DNA of 64,000 bases from Eledone cirrhosa (Eukaryota), in assembly GCA_964016885.1 (NCBI GenBank), contig OZ024755.1:36146001-36210000 (forward strand), read 5' to 3'. Both the position numbers and the translations under genes were made by a program. How positions within the stretch are numbered: position 1 is the stretch's first letter; the number at the start of each line of letters is the position of its first letter. Of this stretch, positions 502 through 55,721 are shown in pieces. Under the pieces are notes generated by a model. It saw only the letters and a list, made by a program, of their open reading frames with translations. It had not been told where the DNA came from and ran no database searches.

Positions 502-509
502 ATCTAAGG

Positions 510-3500
510 TCATTTACCTTTGATTAACTTCCTGTACAGTACCTACTTAGGAATACAATGATCTGTCATTTACCTTTGACTAACTTCCTGTACAGTACCT
601 ACTTAGGAATACAATGATCTGTCATTTACCTTTGACTAACTTCCTGTACAGTACCTACTTAGGAATACAAATATCTGTCATTTACCTTTGACTAACTTCC
701 TGTACAGTACCTACTTAGGAATACAATGATCTGTCATTTACCTTTGACTAACTTCCTGTACAGTACCTACTTAGGAATACAAATATCTGTCATTTACCTT
801 TAACTAATTTCCTGTACAGTACCTACTTAGGAATACAAATATCTGTCATTTACCTTTAACTAATTTCCTGTACAGTACCTACTTAGGAATACAATGATCT
901 GTCATTTACCTTTGACTAACTTCCTGTACAGTACCTACTTAGAAATACAATGATCTGTCATTTACCTTTGACTAACTTCCTGTACAGTACCTACTTAGGA
1001 ATACAATGATCTGTCATTTACCTTTGACTAACTTCCTGTACAGTACCTACTTAGGAATACAATGATCTGTCATTTACCTTTGACTAACTTCCTGTACAGT
1101 ACCTACTTAGGAATACAATGATCTGTCATTTACCTTTGACTAACTTCCTGTACAGTACCTACTTAGGAATACAAATATCTGTCATTTACCTTTGACTAAC
1201 TTCCTGTACAGTACCTACTTAGGAATACAAATATCTGTCATTTACCTTTGACTAACTTGCTGTACAGTACCTACTTAGGAATACAAATATCTGTCATTTA
1301 CCTTTGACTAACTTCCTGTACAGTACCTACTTAGGAATACAATGATCTGTCATTTACCTTTGATTAACTTCCTGTACAGTACCTACTTAGGAATACAATG
1401 ATCTGTCATTTACCTTTGACTAACTTCCTGTACAGTACCTACTTAGGAATACAATGATCTGTCATTTACCTTTGATTAACTTCCTGTACAGTACCTACTT
1501 AGAAATACAATGATCTGTCATTTACCTTTGACTAACTTCCTGTACAGTACCTACTTAGGAATACAATGATCTGTCATTTACCTTTGACTAACTTCCTGTA
1601 CAGTACCTACTTAGGAATACAAATATCTGTCATTTACCTTTGATTAACTTCCTGTACAGTACCTACTTAGGAATACAATGATCTGTCATTTACCTTTGAC
1701 TAACTTCCTGTACAGTACCTACTTAGGAATACAATGATGTCATTTACCTTTGATTAACTTCCTGTACAGTACCTACTTAGGAATACAATGATCTGTCATT
1801 TACCTTTGACTAACTTCCTGTACAGTACCTACTTAGGAATACAATGATCTGTCATTTACCTTTGACTAACTTCCTGTACAGTACCTACTTAGGAATACAA
1901 TGATCTGTCATTTACCTTTGATTAACTTCCTGTACAGTACCTACTTAGGAATACAAATATCTGTCATTTACCTTTGACTAACTTCCTGTACAGTACCTAC
2001 TTAGGAATACAATGATCTGTCATTTACCTTTGATTAACTTCCTGTACAGTACCTACTTAGGAATACAATGATCTGTTCATTCACCTTTGACTAACTTCCT
2101 GTACAGTACCTACTTAGGAATACAATGATCTGTCATTTACCTTTGATTAACTTCCTGTACAGTACCTACTTAGGAATACAAATATCTGTCATTTACCTTT
2201 CACTAACTTCCTGTACAGTACCTACTTAGGAATACAAATATCTGTCATTTACCTTTGACTAACTTGCTGTACAGTACCTACTTAGGAATACAATGATGTC
2301 ATTTACCTTTGATTAACTTCCTGTACAGTACCTACTTAGGAATACAATGATGTCATTTACCTTTGATTAACTTCCTGTACAGTACCTACTTAGGAATACA
2401 ATGATGTCATTTACCTTTGATTAACTTCCTGTACAGTACCTACTTAGGAATACAAATATCTGTCATTTACCTTTGACTAACTTCCTGTACAGTACCTACT
2501 TAGGAATACAAATATCTGTCATTTACCTTTGACTAACTTCCTGTACAGTACCTACTTAGAAATACAATGATCTGTCATTTACCTTTGACTAACTTCCTGT
2601 ACAGTACCTACTTAGGAATACAATGATCTGTCATTTACCTTTGACTAACTTCCTGTACAGTACCTACTTAGGAATACAAATATCTGTCATTTACCTTTGA
2701 TTAACTTCCTGTACAGTACCTACTTAGGAATACAATGATCTGCCATTTACCTTTGACTAACTTCCTGTACAGTACCTACTTAGGAATACAATGATGTCAT
2801 TTACCTTTGATTAACTTCCTGTACAGTACCTACTTAGGAATACAATGATCTGACATTTACCTTTGACTAACTTCCTGTACAGTACCTACTTAGGAATACA
2901 ATCATCTGTCATTTACCTTTGACTAACTTCCTGTACAGTACCTACTTCGGAATACAAATATCTGTCATTTACCTTTGATTAACTTCCTGTACAGTACCTA
3001 CTTAGGAATACAATGATCTGTCATTTACCTTTGACTAACTTCCTGTACAGTACCTACTTAGGAATACAATGATCTGTCATTTACCTTTGACTAACTTCCT
3101 GTACAGTACCTACTTAGGAATACAATGATCTGTCATTTACCTTTGATTAACTTCCTGTACAGTACCTACTTAGGAATACAAATATCTGTCATTTACCTTT
3201 GACTAACTTCCTGTACAGTACCTACTTAGGAATACAATGATCTGTCATTTACCTTTGATTAACTTCCTGTACAGTACCTACTTAGGAATACAATGATCTG
3301 TTCATTCACCTTTGACTAACTTCCTGTACAGTACCTACTTAGGAATACAATGATCTGTCATTTACCTTTGATTAACTTCCTGTACAGTACCTACTTAGGA
3401 ATACAATGATCTGTCATTTACCTTTGACTAACTTGCTGTACAGTACCTACTTAGGAATACAATGATCTGTTCATTTACCTTTGACTAACTTCCTGTACAG

Positions 3501-6500
3501 TACCTACTTAGGAATACAATGATCTGTCATTTACCTTTGATTAACGTCCTGTACAGTACCTACTTAGGAATACAAATATCTGTCATTTACCTTTGACTAA
3601 CTTCCTGTACAGTACCTACTTAGGAATACAATGATCTGTCATTTACCTTTGATTAACTTCCTGTACAGTACCTACTTAGGAATACAATGATCTGTCATTT
3701 ACCTTTGATTAACTTCCTGTACAGTACCTACTTAGGAATACAATGATCTGTCATTTACCTTTGATTAACTTCCTGTACAGTACCTACTTAGGAATACAAT
3801 GATCTGTCATTTACCTTTGACTAACTTGCTGTACAGTACCTACTTAGGAATACAATGATCTGTTCATTTACCTTTGACTAACTTCCTGTACAGTACCTAC
3901 TTAGGAATACAATGATCTGTCATTTACCTTTGATTAACTTCCTGTACAGTACCTACTTAGGAATACAAATATCTGTCATTTACCTTTGACTAACTTCCTG
4001 TACAGTACCTACTTAGGAATACAATGATCTGTCATTTACCTTTGATTAACTTCCTGTACAGTACCTACTTAGGAATACAATGATCTGTCATTTACCTTTG
4101 ATTAACTTCCTGTACAGTACCTACTTAGGAATACAATGATCTGTCATTTACCTTTGATTAACTTCCTGTACAGTACCTACTTAGGAATACAATGATCTGT
4201 TCATTTACCTTTGACTAACTTCCTGTACAGTACCTACTTAGGAATACAATGATCTGTCATTTACCTTTGACTAACTTCCTGTACAGTACCTACTTAGGAA
4301 TACAAATATCTGTCATTTACCTTTGACTAACTTCCTGTACAGTACCTACTTAGGAAGACAAATATCTGTCAATTACCTTTGACTAACTTCCTGTACAGTA
4401 CCTACTTAGGAATACAATGATGTCATTTACCTTTGACTAACTTCCTGTACAGTACCTACTTAGGAATACAATGATCTGTCATTTACCTTTGATTAACTTC
4501 CTGTACAGTACCTACTTAGGAATACAATGATCTGTTCATTCACCTTTGACTAACTTCCTGTACAGTACCTACTTAGGAATACAATGATCTGTCATTTACC
4601 TTTGATTAACTTCCTGTACAGTACCTACTTAGGAATACAATGATCTGTCATTTACCTTTGACTAACTTGCTGTACAGTACCTACTTAGGAATACAATGAT
4701 CTGTTCATTTACCTTTGACTAACTTCCTGTACAGTACCTACTTAGGAATACAATGATCTGTCATTTACCTTTGATTAACGTCCTGTACAGTACCTACTTA
4801 GGAATACAAATATCTGTCATTTACCTTTGACTAACTTCCTGTACAGTACCTACTTAGGAATACAATGATCTGTCATTTACCTTTGATTAACTTCCTGTAC
4901 AGTACCTACTTAGGAATACAATGATCTGTCATTTACCTTTGATTAACTTCCTGTACAGTACCTACTTAGGAATACAATGATCTGTCATTTACCTTTGATT
5001 AACTTCCTGTACAGTACCTACTTAGGAATACAATGATCTGTCATTTACCTTTGACTAACTTGCTGTACAGTACCTACTTAGGAATACAATGATCTGTTCA
5101 TTTACCTTTGACTAACTTCCTGTACAGTACCTACTTAGGAATACAATGATCTGTCATTTACCTTTGATTAACTTCCTGTACAGTACCTACTTAGGAATAC
5201 AAATATCTGTCATTTACCTTTGACTAACTTCCTGTACAGTACCTACTTAGGAATACAATGATCTGTCATTTACCTTTGATTAACTTCCTGTACAGTACCT
5301 ACTTAGGAATACAATGATCTGTCATTTACCTTTGATTAACTTCCTGTACAGTACCTACTTAGGAATACAATGATCTGTCATTTACCTTTGATTAACTTCC
5401 TGTACAGTACCTACTTAGGAATACAATGATCTGTTCATTTACCTTTGACTAACTTCCTGTACAGTACCTACTTAGGAATACAATGATCTGTCATTTACCT
5501 TTGACTAACTTCCTGTACAGTACCTACTTAGGAATACAAATATCTGTCATTTACCTTTGACTAACTTCCTGTACAGTACCTACTTAGGAAGACAAATATC
5601 TGTCAATTACCTTTGACTAACTTCCTGTACAGTACCTACTTAGGAATACAATGATGTCATTTACCTTTGACTAACTTCCTGTACAGTACCTACTTAGGAA
5701 TACAATGATCTGTCATTTACCTTTGATTAACTTCCTGTACAGTACCTACTTAGGAATACAATGATCTGTCATTTACCTTTTACTAACTTCCTGTACAGTA
5801 CCTACTTAGGAATACAATGATCTGTCATTTACCTTTGAGTAACTTCCTGTACAGTACCTACTTAGGAATACAATGATCTGTCATTTACCTTTGATTAACT
5901 TCCTGTACAGTACCTACTTAGGAATACAATGATCTGTTCATTCACCTTTGACTAACTTCCTGTACAGTACCTACTTAGGAATACAATGATCTGTCATTTA
6001 CCTTTGATTAACTTCCTGTACAGTACCTACTTAGGAATACAATGATCTGTCATTTACCTTTGACTAACTTGCTGTACAGTACCTACTTAGGAATACAATG
6101 ATCTGTTCATTTACCTTTGACTAACTTCCTGTACAGTACCTACTTAGGAATACAATGATCTGTCATTTACCTTTGATTAACTTCCTGTACAGTACCTACT
6201 TAGGAATACAATGATCTGTCATTTACCTTTGATTAACTTCCTGTACAGTACCTACTTAGGAATACAATGATCTGTTCATTTACCTTTGACTAACTTCCTG
6301 TACAGTACCTACTTAGGAATACAATGATCTGTCATTTACCTTTGATTAACTTCCTGTACAGTACCTACTTAGGAATACAATGATCTGTCATTTACCTTTG
6401 ACTAACTTCCTGTACAGTACCTACTTAGGAATACAAATATCTGTCATTTACCTTTGATTAACTTCCTGTACAGTACCTACTTAGGAATACAATGATCTGT

Positions 6501-6559
6501 CATTTACCTTTGACTAACTTCCTGTACAGTACCTACTTAGGAATACAATGATCTGTCAT
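510..6559. repeat. 56-bp tandem satellite (about 108 copies) derived from RTE LINE coding sequence
   Basis: Unit atctgtcatttacctttgactaacttcctgtacagtacctacttaggaatacaatg with period 56 (561 to 617). Its reverse complement encodes MTDHCIPK*VLYRKLVKGK. Confidence 0.97.
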
Positions 6560-6735
6560 TCTTATAAAAGGGCCACTCAAGCACAATCTATATTGAATTA
6601 TGAGAGATTCAATACTTTCAAAATGACTTCATTCCGGCTCTTCAACATTACTCATATGAGATTGCCAACTGATATTGAGTATTCGGCGAGGATACTTTTG
6701 ATGAAAGTGATCAAGTATTTTTATATTTCACATGC
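6548..6735 (-). mobile_element. RTE-clade LINE ORF2 remnant running into the satellite
   Basis: The minus strand reads IKILDHFHQKYPRRILNISWQSHMSNVEE.*SHFESIESLIIQYRLCLSGPFIRM, which parallels the 17263-17652 RTE translation (LERFHQQSL...IESMIFRHRLRWSGHMIWM). Confidence 0.8.
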
Positions 6736-6827
6736 ATACAACAATGAAGACAATATACATACATACATATATAAAGAGCTATATATATATATATAATATG
6801 TGTATATAATTATATATATATATATAT

Positions 6828-7186
6828 ATGAATGTATGTATAGTATATTTGGCAATATACCGTATGTTTAATTAAAAACATTTAGAAGACCATACGCTAT
6901 CAGTTTTAAAGTAGTCACTATGTCACTTACTTCTTTTCGGCGAAGGAAGGGAGAGACGCTGACAGTCTGTTTCACGTTGGTTGGCATTTATCAAAATCAC
7001 GCACGCCCCTGCTTCCGCTGAAAATTATAGAAGCTGGATTCTTATAGAATTCCAGTAATAATCAGGACCTGATTATACAGAGCGATTGCCGGTCCAGCAA
7101 AAATTAGGTATTAGGATTGGTGTTCTGAAATAGCGATGTGTACATGAATGTATGTATAGTATATTTGGCTATATACCGTATGTTTA

Positions 7187-7189
<3 letters not shown>
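6828..7189 (-). mobile_element. 316-bp retrozyme-like element (1.15 units) in a (TA)n tract
   Basis: A 46-bp direct terminal repeat (6828-6873 and 7144-7189, one mismatch) gives period 316. (TA)n lies on both sides and there is an internal hammerhead-like motif. Confidence 0.65.
6945..7016 (-). ncRNA. putative type I hammerhead ribozyme (U3-A8 core variant)
   Basis: Minus strand: ggaag-c-aggggcg-tgcgtga-tt TTGATAA atg[ccaaccaa]cgt GAAAC agact GTC ag-cgtctct-cc-cttcc. Core spacing is correct and stem I is bulged, with only 2 bp next to the core. Confidence 0.55.
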
Positions 7190-7246
<57 letters not shown>

Positions 7247-7250
<4 letters not shown>

Positions 7251-49801: not shown

Positions 49802-49841
<40 letters not shown>

Positions 49842-49910
49842 TATGAAGAGAGAAGAAACATTTAGATATAATTAGTAATAAAATGTATCATACCTAAACT
49901 GTTCCTAAAT

Positions 49911-49998
49911 TCCTCGACTACGTAGTTTCGTGGCATAAACAAAAACAATATATCAAAGATATAGAGTCCTTGCGAGGTCTGCCAACTTATCAAGAGGA
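49911..49998 (-). ncRNA. type I hammerhead ribozyme, first of 8 minus-strand copies (others start at 50502, 51093, 51684, 52275, 52866, 53457, 54038)
   Basis: Reverse complement of the motif at 54584-54671. Confidence 0.78.
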
Positions 49999-52900
49999 TA
50001 CCTCATTTTACTAGTCTCAAGAACGCGTCTACACGACGTGAGAAAGAATCCCAAAAGGCGGAGGGGGAGATAGTCACGCGATATAACGGTCGAGAAACAG
50101 AGCTAAGCCTCTTATAACCACGAAGAAAATACCACGGAGGCGGAGGGGGTATTCATATCGAGGCCGTAGAAGAGGTAGTGAAGAAGGCGAGAAGTATGAG
50201 TAATGGAAGCTTTCCAGTTGTCCCCACACTTCAAAGATTGCTCGACCAGAGGGAGTTATTAATATATTTAAAAACACACAGATACATGCGGACACACACA
50301 TATATACATGAATGCATCCGCACCCAACTGTGAGTTAAGGGTGCCAACTTCACCGATGTTGCTCAATGAATGACTGGGACAGACCAATTCAGTTTGAACC
50401 AGACTGAACCAGTATCAGAGTTAAAAATACATTATGAAGAGAGAAGAAACATTTAGATATAATTAGTAATAAAATGTATCATACCTAAACTGTTCCTAAA
50501 TTCCTCGACTACGTAGTTTCGTGGCATAAACAAAAACAATATATCAAAGATATAGAGTCCTTGCGAGGTCTGCCAACTTATCAAGAGGATACCTCATTTT
50601 ACTAGTCTCAAGAACGCGTCTACACGACGTGAGAAAGAATCCCAAAAGGCGGAGGGGGAGATAGTCACGCGATATAACGGTCGAGAAACAGAGCTAAGCC
50701 TCTTATAACCACGAAGAAAATACCACGGAGGCGGAGGGGGTATTCATATCGAGGCCGTAGAAGAGGTAGTGAAGAAGGCGAGAAGTATGAGTAATGGAAG
50801 CTTTCCAGTTGTCCCCACACTTCAAAGATTGCTCGACCAGAGGGAGTTATTAATATATTTAAAAACACACAGATACATGCGGACACACACATATATACAT
50901 GAATGCATCCGCACCCAACTGTGAGTTAAGGGTGCCAACTTCACCGATGTTGCTCAATGAATGACTGGGACAGACCAATTCAGTTTGAACCAGACTGAAC
51001 CAGTATCAGAGTTAAAAATACATTATGAAGAGAGAAGAAACATTTAGATATAATTAGTAATAAAATGTATCATACCTAAACTGTTCCTAAATTCCTCGAC
51101 TACGTAGTTTCGTGGCATAAACAAAAACAATATATCAAAGATATAGAGTCCTTGCGAGGTCTGCCAACTTATCAAGAGGATACCTCATTTTACTAGTCTC
51201 AAGAACGCGTCTACACGACGTGAGAAAGAATCCCAAAAGGCGGAGGGGGAGATAGTCACGCGATATAACGGTCGAGAAACAGAGCTAAGCCTCTTATAAC
51301 CACGAAGAAAATACCACGGAGGCGGAGGGGGTATTCATATCGAGGCCGTAGAAGAGGTAGTGAAGAAGGCGAGAAGTATGAGTAATGGAAGCTTTCCAGT
51401 TGTCCCCACACTTCAAAGATTGCTCGACCAGAGGGAGTTATTAATATATTTAAAAACACACAGATACATGCGGACACACACATATATACATGAATGCATC
51501 CGCACCCAACTGTGAGTTAAGGGTGCCAACTTCACCGATGTTGCTCAATGAATGACTGGGACAGACCAATTCAGTTTGAACCAGACTGAACCAGTATCAG
51601 AGTTAAAAATACATTATGAAGAGAGAAGAAACATTTAGATATAATTAGTAATAAAATGTATCATACCTAAACTGTTCCTAAATTCCTCGACTACGTAGTT
51701 TCGTGGCATAAACAAAAACAATATATCAAAGATATAGAGTCCTTGCGAGGTCTGCCAACTTATCAAGAGGATACCTCATTTTACTAGTCTCAAGAACGCG
51801 TCTACACGACGTGAGAAAGAATCCCAAAAGGCGGAGGGGGAGATAGTCACGCGATATAACGGTCGAGAAACAGAGCTAAGCCTCTTATAACCACGAAGAA
51901 AATACCACGGAGGCGGAGGGGGTATTCATATCGAGGCCGTAGAAGAGGTAGTGAAGAAGGCGAGAAGTATGAGTAATGGAAGCTTTCCAGTTGTCCCCAC
52001 ACTTCAAAGATTGCTCGACCAGAGGGAGTTATTAATATATTTAAAAACACACAGATACATGCGGACACACACATATATACATGAATGCATCCGCACCCAA
52101 CTGTGAGTTAAGGGTGCCAACTTCACCGATGTTGCTCAATGAATGACTGGGACAGACCAATTCAGTTTGAACCAGACTGAACCAGTATCAGAGTTAAAAA
52201 TACATTATGAAGAGAGAAGAAACATTTAGATATAATTAGTAATAAAATGTATCATACCTAAACTGTTCCTAAATTCCTCGACTACGTAGTTTCGTGGCAT
52301 AAACAAAAACAATATATCAAAGATATAGAGTCCTTGCGAGGTCTGCCAACTTATCAAGAGGATACCTCATTTTACTAGTCTCAAGAACGCGTCTACACGA
52401 CGTGAGAAAGAATCCCAAAAGGCGGAGGGGGAGATAGTCACGCGATATAACGGTCGAGAAACAGAGCTAAGCCTCTTATAACCACGAAGAAAATACCACG
52501 GAGGCGGAGGGGGTATTCATATCGAGGCCGTAGAAGAGGTAGTGAAGAAGGCGAGAAGTATGAGTAATGGAAGCTTTCCAGTTGTCCCCACACTTCAAAG
52601 ATTGCTCGACCAGAGGGAGTTATTAATATATTTAAAAACACACAGATACATGCGGACACACACATATATACATGAATGCATCCGCACCCAACTGTGAGTT
52701 AAGGGTGCCAACTTCACCGATGTTGCTCAATGAATGACTGGGACAGACCAATTCAGTTTGAACCAGACTGAACCAGTATCAGAGTTAAAAATACATTATG
52801 AAGAGAGAAGAAACATTTAGATATAATTAGTAATAAAATGTATCATACCTAAACTGTTCCTAAATTCCTCGACTACGTAGTTTCGTGGCATAAACAAAAA

Positions 52901-54583
52901 CAATATATCAAAGATATAGAGTCCTTGCGAGGTCTGCCAACTTATCAAGAGGATACCTCATTTTACTAGTCTCAAGAACGCGTCTACACGACGTGAGAAA
53001 GAATCCCAAAAGGCGGAGGGGGAGATAGTCACGCGATATAACGGTCGAGAAACAGAGCTAAGCCTCTTATAACCACGAAGAAAATACCACGGAGGCGGAG
53101 GGGGTATTCATATCGAGGCCGTAGAAGAGGTAGTGAAGAAGGCGAGAAGTATGAGTAATGGAAGCTTTCCAGTTGTCCCCACACTTCAAAGATTGCTCGA
53201 CCAGAGGGAGTTATTAATATATTTAAAAACACACAGATACATGCGGACACACACATATATACATGAATGCATCCGCACCCAACTGTGAGTTAAGGGTGCC
53301 AACTTCACCGATGTTGCTCAATGAATGACTGGGACAGACCAATTCAGTTTGAACCAGACTGAACCAGTATCAGAGTTAAAAATACATTATGAAGAGAGAA
53401 GAAACATTTAGATATAATTAGTAATAAAATGTATCATACCTAAACTGTTCCTAAATTCCTCGACTACGTAGTTTCGTGGCATAAACAAAAACAATATATC
53501 AAAGATATAGAGTCCTTGCGAGGTCTGCCAACTTATCAAGAGGATACCTCATTTTACTAGTCTCAAGAACGCGTCTACACGACGTGAGAAAGAATCCCAA
53601 AAGGCGGAGGGGGAGATAGTCACGCGATATAACGGTCGAGAAACAGAGCTAAGCCTCTTATAACCACGAAGAAAATACCACGGAGGCGGAGGGGGTATTC
53701 ATATCGAGGCCGTAGAAGAGGTAGTGAAGAAGGCGAGAAGTATGAGTAATGGAAGCTTTCCAGTTGTCCCCACACTTCAAAGATTGCTCGACCAGAGGGA
53801 GTTATTAATATATTTAAAAACACACAGATACATGCGGACACACACATATATACATGAATGCATCCGCACCCAACTGTGAGTTAAGGGTGCCAACTTCACC
53901 GATGTTGCTCAATGAATGACTGGGACAGACCAATTCAGTTTGAACCAGTATCAGAGTTAAAAATACATTATGAAGAGAGAAGAAACATTTAGATATAATT
54001 AGTAATAAAATGTATCATACCTAAACTGTTCCTAAATTCCTCGACTACGTAGTTTCGTGGCATAAACAAAAACAATATATCAAAGATATAGAGTCCTTGC
54101 GAGGTCTGCCAACTTATCAAGAGGATACCTCATTTTACTAGTCTCAAGAACGCGTCTACACGACGTGAGAAAGAATCCCAAAAGGCGGAGGGGGAGATAG
54201 TCACGCGATATAACGGTCGAGAAACAGAGCTAAGCCTCTTATAACCACGAAGAAAATACCACGGATGCATTCATGTATATATGTGTGTGTCCGCATGTAT
54301 CTGTGTGTTTTTAAATATATTAATAACTCCCTCTGGTCGAGCAATCTTTGAAGTGTGGGGACAACTGGAAAGCTTCCATTACTCATACTTCTCGCCTTCT
54401 TCACTACCTCTTCTACGGCCTCGATATGAATACCCCCTCCGCCTCCGTGGTATTTTCTTCGTGGTTATAAGAGGCTTAGCTCTGTTTCTCGACCGTTATA
54501 TCGCGTGACTATCTCCCCCTCCGCCTTTTGGGATTCTTTCTCACGTCGTGTAGACGCGTTCTTGAGACTAGTAAAATGAGGTA

Positions 54584-54671
54584 TCCTCTTGATAAGTTGG
54601 CAGACCTCGCAAGGACTCTATATCTTTGATATATTGTTTTTGTTTATGCCACGAAACTACGTAGTCGAGGA
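54584..54671 (+). ncRNA. type I hammerhead ribozyme (U3-A8 variant); predicted cleavage after C54666
   Basis: tcctc TTGATAA gttggca [44 nt] tgccac GAAAC tacgta GTC gagga: 5-bp stem I, stem II and palindromic stem III actacgtagt. Confidence 0.8.
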
Positions 54672-55174
54672 ATTTAGGAACAGTTTAGGTATGATACATT
54701 TTATTACTAATTATATCTAAATGTTTCTTCTCTCTTCATAATGTATTTTTAACTCTGATACTGGTTCAGTCTGGTTCAAACTGAATTGGTCTGTCCCAGT
54801 CATTCATTGAGCAACATCGGTGAAGTTGGCACCCTTAACTCACAGTTGGGTGCGGATGCATTCATGTATATATGTGTGTGTCCGCATGTATCTGTGTGTT
54901 TTTAAATATATTAATAACTCCCTCTGGTCGAGCAATCTTTGAAGTGTGGGGACAACTGGAAAGCTTCCATTACTCATACTTCTCGCCTTCTTCACTACCT
55001 CTTCTACGGCCTCGATATGAATACCCCCTCCGCCTCCGTGGTATTTTCTTCGTGGTTATAAGAGGCTTAGCTCTGTTTCTCGACCGTTATATCGCGTGAC
55101 TATCTCCCCCTCCGCCTTTTGGGATTCTTTCTCACGTCGTGTAGACGCGTTCTTGAGACTAGTAAAATGAGGTA

Positions 55175-55262
55175 TCCTCTTGATAAGTTGGCAGACCTCG
55201 CAAGGACTCTATATCTTTGATATATTGTTTTTGTTTATGCCACGAAACTACGTAGTCGAGGA
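55175..55262 (+). ncRNA. type I hammerhead ribozyme, second plus-strand copy
   Basis: Identical to 54584-54671, shifted by 591 bp. Confidence 0.8.
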
Positions 55263-55493
55263 ATTTAGGAACAGTTTAGGTATGATACATTTTATTACTA
55301 ATTATATCTAAATGTTTCTTCTCTCTTCATAATGTATTTTTAACTCTGATACTGGTTCAGTCTGGTTCAAACTGAATTGGTCTGTCCCAGTCATTCATTG
55401 AGCAACATCGGTGAAGTTGGCACCCTTAACTCACAGTTGGGTGCGGATGCATTCATGTATATATGTGTGTGTCCGCATGTATCTGTGTGTTTT

Positions 55494-55534
<41 letters not shown>

Positions 55535-55568: not shown

Positions 55569-55638
55569 TTGTGTTCTCATCAGATAAAATAAGGTAACAT
55601 GATATCATGTTACCTTATTTCATCTGATGAGAACACAA
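55569..55638. repeat. 70-bp near-perfect loopless palindrome
   Basis: ttgtgttctcatcagataaaataaggtaacatgat|atcatgttaccttatttcatctgatgagaacacaa, with one mismatch. Confidence 0.92.
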
Positions 55639-55721
55639 TTTTTGTCCCAGGCTGATTTTTTATTCAAAATGCACATAATAAAATATATGGAACTCTTTTA
55701 ACCATCTTTTAATTTCTTCTT

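Follow-up and report, generated by a model that had tools for sequence, protein, structure and literature searches.

A worn copy of a dispersed, hammerhead-bearing 316-bp repeat in (TA)n tracts of Eledone cirrhosa, very likely a non-autonomous retrozyme mobilised by PLEs

Closest described systems

Animal non-LTR retrozymes were defined by Cervera & de la Pena (2020), who showed their circles and named PLEs as likely helpers (PMC7229834), and Li, Clavereau & Pollet (2026) argued that retrozymes are non-autonomous PLE derivatives (bioRxiv 10.64898/2026.07.22.740005). Insertions of PLEs are described as 5′-truncated partial tandems next to which an inverted copy lies, with a tail of 30–40 bp, often at one end only (PMC8557442), and (TA)n is targeted by Hydra and Naiad PLEs (Craig et al. 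2021; PMC8557442). Frangieh et al. (2024; PMC11167929) showed cleavage and extension of both strands by a PLE, with RT beginning at two internal sites, which delimit the tail. Hammerheads (HHRs) with a U3–A8 core are known from the Cercyon PLEs of Schistosoma mansoni, with about 1,300 matches (Cervera & de la Pena 2014; PMC4209133).

Here, we discuss a 316-bp repeat family, one copy of which lies in the window, i.e., the whole stretch of 64,000 nucleotides of E. cirrhosa DNA that was analyzed. The family resembles animal non-LTR retrozymes (PMC7229834; bioRxiv 10.64898/2026.07.22.740005) in that its unit is non-coding, falls within 150–450 bp, has a low GC content (<50%), follows a head-to-tail phase, and lacks LTR, PBS, and PPT; the ends vary by truncation, PLEs co-occur, and each unit has one type I HHR, which is degraded in the window copy. 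Unlike those retrozymes, the family is nearly all dispersed and truncated, with fewer than two units per copy and often with inverted pairs in (TA)n. A homologous PLE pLTR is reported for 24 of 57 Xenopus families (bioRxiv 10.64898/2026.07.22.740005), whereas none was found for the 316-bp family among three PLE families.

The likeness to EN+ PLEs (Hydra, Neptune, and Poseidon clades; PMC8557442, PMC11167929) extends to 5′ truncation, partial tandems, an inverted 5′-adjacent copy, a 30–40-bp one-end tail, two internal RT start sites, an HHR upstream of the 3′ end, and (TA)n targeting (Hydra, Naiad), but the 316-bp family has no RT or GIY-YIG ORF. In addition, with helix III at 3 bp and helix I long, its HHR comes closer to canonical type I HHRs than to the minimal form of PLEs. 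The compensated U3–A8 core is identical to that of S. mansoni Cercyon HHRs (PMC4209133), although, unlike in Cercyon, a single retrozyme family here shows the two core states in successive subfamilies.

A search of the published literature returned no account of the 316-bp family and no count of short/tail pairing; related elements may appear in the supplements to PMC8557442, PMC7229834, and the bioRxiv preprint, and most subscription papers were outside the search. The family itself is new. The element class is already described, and the U3–A8 core is already in print for PLE HHRs (PMC4209133); the surprise is therefore modest.

The insertion and its repeat family

The preliminary description had claimed a 46-bp terminal redundancy at period 316 between (TA)n tracts, and this was recovered: positions 7144–7189 and 6828–6873 are identical at 45 of 46 sites, with the sole mismatch at 6854, and TRF annotates a degenerate TA tract (6753–6848) on one side and a perfect one (7191–7247) on the other. 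Over one 316-bp unit, 14 sites of the window copy depart from the family majority. The window element is a worn copy of an abundant, dispersed, short mobile element with a putative self-cutting RNA motif (Table 1). A reading of 6931–7017 as an exon is unsupported, since the repeat there is present in high copy number. A minisatellite unrelated in sequence, with 108 copies of 56 bp (window 509–6560), ends about 270 bp before the element.

Table 1. Features of the insertion and its surroundings in window coordinates (u, position in the 316-bp unit)
Feature	Position	Strand	Remarks
Entire insertion	6828..7189	-	Single-armed, 5′-truncated partial tandem; 1.15 units of the 316-bp unit of a very likely retrozyme; 362 bp
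Insertion ends	5′ end 7189; 3′ end ~6828-6830	-	3′ end of the "short" class
One complete 316-bp unit	6830..7145	-	u1 = 7145, u316 = 6830
46-bp 3′ part of the preceding unit	7144..7189	-	pseudo-LTR-like redundancy from 5′ truncation; 45/46 to 6828-6873
3′-terminal 46 bp	6828..6873	-	Stops at the putative short RT start site and runs into (TA)n
"Tail" segment of ~35 nt, u3-u37	7109..7143	-	Internal in the window copy; extended 3′ end in other copies
Degenerate (TA)n target tract at the element 3′ end	6753..6827	.	Tandem-repeat annotation (TRF)
Perfect (TA)28 tract at the element 5′ end	7191..7247	.	Tandem-repeat annotation (TRF)
HHR core UUGAUAA, U3-A8 replacing C3-G8	6988..6994	-	From sequence, genome patterns, and tree
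Helix II, 4 bp, with CAACCA loop	6974..6987	-	Change at 6977 breaks one pair in the window copy
GAAA, short near-palindromic helix III (ACA-GAC-UGU), and GUC	6961..6973	-	Predicted cleavage 3′ of 6961
Helix I, proximal 4 bp	6998-6995 with 6960-6957	-	Two pairs broken in the window copy, at 6997 and 6957
Helix I, distal ~20 bp	7024-7004 with 6953-6934	-	Covariation in 50 copies; kept in the 310-bp sister family
Helix I, whole (proximal, internal loop, distal)	6934..7024	-	Covariation; sister-family pairing

The genome search for further copies of the unit, which the preliminary description had proposed, revealed a dispersed multi-copy family: a DNA search of the 3.0-Gb genome gave 3,013 first-look candidates, and the best non-self matches among the 40 scored were 92–94% identical. 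A 31-nt motif near the 3′ end of the unit had 1,361 exact matches in the genome (control: 0). Most of the first 100 of these matches, all on contig C1, provided 90 loci, from which two were removed (one at an identical place and one near-duplicate), leaving 88 loci with 168 arms; as the sample was picked by a 3′ motif, its coverage is biased to the 3′ end, whereas end positions and pairing were not forced. Head-to-tail copies with two cores on one strand were rare (2 of the 88 loci), and the window locus has one HHR. No long tandem array was seen among the 88 loci; L079 spans about 3.4 units.

Several TA-associated HHR repeat families are present in the genome and belong to the known PLE/retrozyme class, which agrees with the earlier suggestion of a wider class of TA-targeted ribozyme elements. 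A young sister family with a 310-bp unit, 68% identical to the 316-bp unit, forms near-identical tandems (L266 100–1240; L063 1–890; L118; L191) and has both 3′ ends in common with the 316-bp family; its CUGAUGA HHR lies in the same position, its loop III is a palindromic CGCG, and the pairing of the long helix I is retained.

Other repeats were encountered among the fetched loci. In a third, older relative (L175 100–525; L017 700–1190; L212), the 3′ start region is about 70% similar, and a degenerate hammerhead lies within a long helix in L175 and L017. A structure scan of fetched loci returned other recurrent minimal hammerheads with palindromic loop III (L054, L055, L133, L047, L061, L125, L069, L204, and L111), including one family with a UUGAAAA (U3–A8) core. 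At L332 (930–1390), a 31-bp piece of the unit (u274–u306) has grown into a minisatellite of about 15 copies beside a full copy.

The hammerhead and its core variants

The letters of the minus-strand hammerhead claimed earlier are present: TTGATAA (6994–6988) is followed by atg[8]cgt and GAAAC-agact-GTC, with the GTC at 6963–6961 and C17 at 6961. The predicted cleavage point lies after u185 in unit numbering, and both C and U are common at N17 across family copies. On both strands of the window, a stricter HHR regex matched only this copy, and a looser one gave eight matches in all. Such a match is not attributable to chance, because exact family patterns match 59 and 657 places in the genome, compared with 0 for reversed controls.

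We built a consensus and examined covariation, as had been proposed. In an alignment of 50 copies, the type I HHR with helix I extended by about 20 bp had 89% of cells paired and two-sided changes in 16 of 32 pairs (slid controls: 5–10), values reached by 0 of 500 shuffles, with the caveats that the copies are related, so that the compensatory changes represent few events, and that pattern selection left the core and helix III columns invariant. The stem structure first proposed thus survives as a real HHR in refined form, in which stem II is a 4-bp helix capped by a CAACCA loop and the "bulged" stem I forms a long helix that covaries. As far as aligned sequences can demonstrate it, the compensatory changes establish that the HHR was under selection in master copies, and the covariation gives self-cleavage indirect support. 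Among inserted copies, mismatches amounted to 5.5% at core positions versus 5.9% elsewhere; that the core is kept no better is expected after insertion.

An intact family copy matched the Rfam hammerhead clan weakly (HH9, 21.9 bits, E 0.0028, below gathering), and Rfam found no HHR in the window copy when run on the whole window and on 6900–7080. RNAalifold on the family yielded a 6-bp non-HHR helix instead of the active fold, and both RNAalifold and MFE favored base pairing between the core and the helix III strand. The linear fold of the window unit was not significant (z −1.5). The window copy is probably a weak or dead ribozyme, because the changes at 6997, 6957, and 6977 break two proximal helix I pairs and one helix II pair; with these three broken pairs in stems I and II it would be a poor cleavage substrate, and with a single HHR it would be unable to release a monomer by double cleavage.

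UUGAUAA had been described as a core shared with a 591-bp unit elsewhere in the window. It is a real compensated core, but the 316-bp family is mostly CUGAUGA (about three quarters of loose-pattern matches). Strict genome-wide patterns gave 657 matches for C3–G8, 59 for U3–A8, 21 for C3–A8, and 14 for U3–G8, and looser patterns gave 1,127 for CTGATGA (control: 11) and 353 for TTGATAA (control: 28). Since single changes under independence would produce only about 0.5 double changes, where 59 were observed, these counts indicate that U3–A8 is not noise and marks whole amplified subfamilies.

The core tree comprised 86 of 143 eligible rows (31 CTGATGA rows were removed by random subsampling and 26 single-change rows were excluded) and was built with both core columns deleted and rooted on the 310-bp sister family. 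In this rooted tree, the U3–A8 subfamilies form a ladder below C3–G8 subfamily A, although an AU test does not reject U3–A8 monophyly (p 0.34, 0.25). The window copy falls within subfamily A (98/89 support). It is of A-type (CUGAUGA) at five diagnostic sites and B-type at three, all within 8 nt, and its 29 closest relatives consist of 26 CTGATGA, 2 CCGATGA, and 1 TTGATGA copies. These observations would suit a UUGAUAA acquired by private decay or by a short recombinant patch and not inherited from a UUGAUAA master. We consider this origin rather unlikely: even without the core columns, the window copy is sister to L215, another UUGAUAA copy with the identical stem II change (88/84 support), and three parallel mutations that all equal subfamily B are improbable. 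Most likely, as tree and diagnostic sites suggest, the window copy derived from a small transitional or recombinant UUGAUAA master. One UUGAUAA subfamily (L302, L311, L312, L316, L324, L326–L328, L340) has a helix III that is 4 nt longer and could fold as a stable monomer, whereas other subfamilies carry a short, dimer-type helix.

Insertion pattern and mobilization

Arm 3′ ends fell into two fixed positions about 35 nt apart, u309–u12 (68 arms) and u30–u46 (61 arms), which account for 129 of the 168 arms from 88 loci; the remaining 39 ended elsewhere, and 5′ ends were scattered. Back-to-back inverted arms occurred at 54 of the 88 loci (55 pairs); the window copy is single-armed. Among the 31 pairs that could be classified at both ends, 28 combined a short with a tailed arm (p 5e-6 against 50:50), three were short/short, and none was tail/tail. 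Compared with a background of 8.6%, a TA run followed 49 of 61 tailed ends; for short ends, whose alignments run too far into TA-like letters, the count was 38 of 68. The cleavage junction was crossed by 67 of 129 arms, with no pile-up of 5′ ends at u186. Most arms were shorter than one unit; 27 were longer, up to 499 nt in this sample. Fixed 3′ ends with an optional tail, variable 5′ ends, inverted arms, and short/tailed pairing are PLE signatures.

Intact autonomous PLEs exist in the genome. A Hydra-type PLE (L265–L270) has an 821-codon ORF with the DKT and CxCX5C motifs given for Hydra; its pLTR contains an HHR, and its ends lead into TA repeats. It is very young (109 of 109 scored matches 98–100% identical) and, judging from these sequence features, is a candidate active element. 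A second family (L271–L300) has a GIY-YIG endonuclease at its C terminus and ends in TA, and a Poseidon-like family is also present (4 loci read). The clade labels Hydra-type and Poseidon-like are tentative and draw in part on the motifs of PMC8557442. No sequence in common with the 316-bp unit was found in the pLTRs/UTRs of these three families. The end spacing of the unit, about 35 nt, compares with two 3′ ends about 90 nt apart in the Hydra-type PLE and about 55–60 nt apart in the second family, and many further PLE families were seen only as fragments. Pieces of pLTR related to the Hydra-type PLE lie at window 55575–55720, and a CUGAAGA hammerhead-like motif is found in the 3′ region of the second family.

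We regard it as very likely that the window element is a decayed, single-armed copy of a non-autonomous non-LTR retrozyme with a 316-nt non-coding unit and a type I HHR, mobilized in trans by a PLE. Source loci would be transcribed through tandem units, and the HHR, by analogy with other retrozymes, presumably cleaves the multimers into monomers, possibly circularized. A PLE RT/GIY-YIG protein would nick (TA)n DNA, and RT would start inside the RNA at one of the two sites seen as fixed ends, about 35 nt apart and 131–170 nt downstream of the HHR cleavage site. Passing the HHR junction, with either an uncleaved multimer or a religated circle as template, and stopping randomly, RT would leave partial tandems of the observed kind, such as the window copy, in which the 46-bp redundancy would be the remainder after RT from the short site ran one unit plus 46 nt. 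Both target strands may often be primed, typically one per start site, giving the observed back-to-back inverted arms. Several points speak against this scenario: none of the three PLE families compared matched the unit, the predicted folds pair the core with the helix III strand, Rfam did not recognize an HHR in the window copy, and tandem-core loci are so few (2 of 88) that loci able to make monomers are rare.

This same rarity favors a religated template, and the insert might be the direct cDNA of a 316-nt circular RNA, copied by rolling-circle RT over 1.15 turns; this would be a sub-case of PLE mobilization in trans that needs a circular template. The 1.15 turns claimed earlier hold as a partial tandem of 1.15 units, but the 46-bp repeat is no proof of a circle, because an uncleaved linear multimer leaves identical DNA. 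The free crossing of the cleavage junction and the arms exceeding one unit agree with a circle, and circles are shown for coral, mussel, and axolotl retrozymes (PMC7229834). Conversely, PMC11167929 describes a PLE that used unprocessed RNA in vitro, with no need for HHR cleavage, most arms here are below one unit, and repeated ends, when compared within 30 arms, did not tell circle and multimer apart. We put the circular template at slightly less than an even chance.

A self-contained retrozyme also has to be weighed against two readings of another kind. The pieces could belong to a long autonomous PLE as nothing but its truncated 3′ ends (pLTRs); PLE copies are mostly 5′-truncated (PMC8557442), and the insertion signatures are as in PLE ends; yet long arms wrap to the same unit at period 316 and not into an ORF, all ORFs inside the unit have 42 codons or fewer with no RT plus GIY-YIG ORF, and no fetched locus joined the unit to a common upstream ORF, so that we find this reading very unlikely. 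It is also very unlikely that a SINE-like or satellite repeat with a passive HHR-like motif was spread by a LINE or through amplification at the DNA level. Such repeats are likewise short, non-coding, and high-copy, and the predicted lowest-energy folds differ from the active HHR, but a tRNA scan found no tRNA head in 5 of 5 loci, there is no A tail, and the two fixed 3′ ends, inverted arm pairs, and compensated core and helices also argue against it.

The non-autonomous retrozyme mobilized by a PLE could be taken further, on a speculative and in our view doubtful level: the 316-bp family and its sisters would be circular-RNA parasites with no remaining pLTR ancestry that recruit a PLE by structural mimicry of the RT start region, with one PLE complex priming both target strands, each from a different start site (28 of 31 pairs), and the HHR would have switched its core pair (U3–A8 versus C3–G8) and helix III length while mobile. 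As an ORF-less retrozyme with the PLE insertion signatures checked here, the 316-bp family cleanly supports, from genomic data, the link proposed between animal retrozymes and PLEs. The near-strict short and tailed pairing is a testable constraint on how PLE enzymes use two start sites, and the subfamily series supplies naturally occurring HHR variants, which differ in core pair, helix II base, and helix III length, for cleavage assays.

The preliminary description also took the element as a second retrozyme family sharing the target preference of the 591-bp unit; what stands is a multi-copy, TA-targeted, HHR-bearing family of retrozyme type that is not homologous to that unit. An 11-mer and an 18-nt TA-like motif (E 0.026) were shared; otherwise the two units did not align. 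We rejected the 18-nt motif as a sign of kinship because it is of low complexity and plain microsatellites score similarly, and for this reason the claim of no other similarity is borne out. The 591-bp array itself consists of two back-to-back inverted arms in TA repeats (window 49836–54268 and 54262–55502), and every unit contains a UUGAUAA hammerhead of its own, in which helix II is long and helix III palindromic. The 591-bp unit also occurs in L084, L213, and L245.
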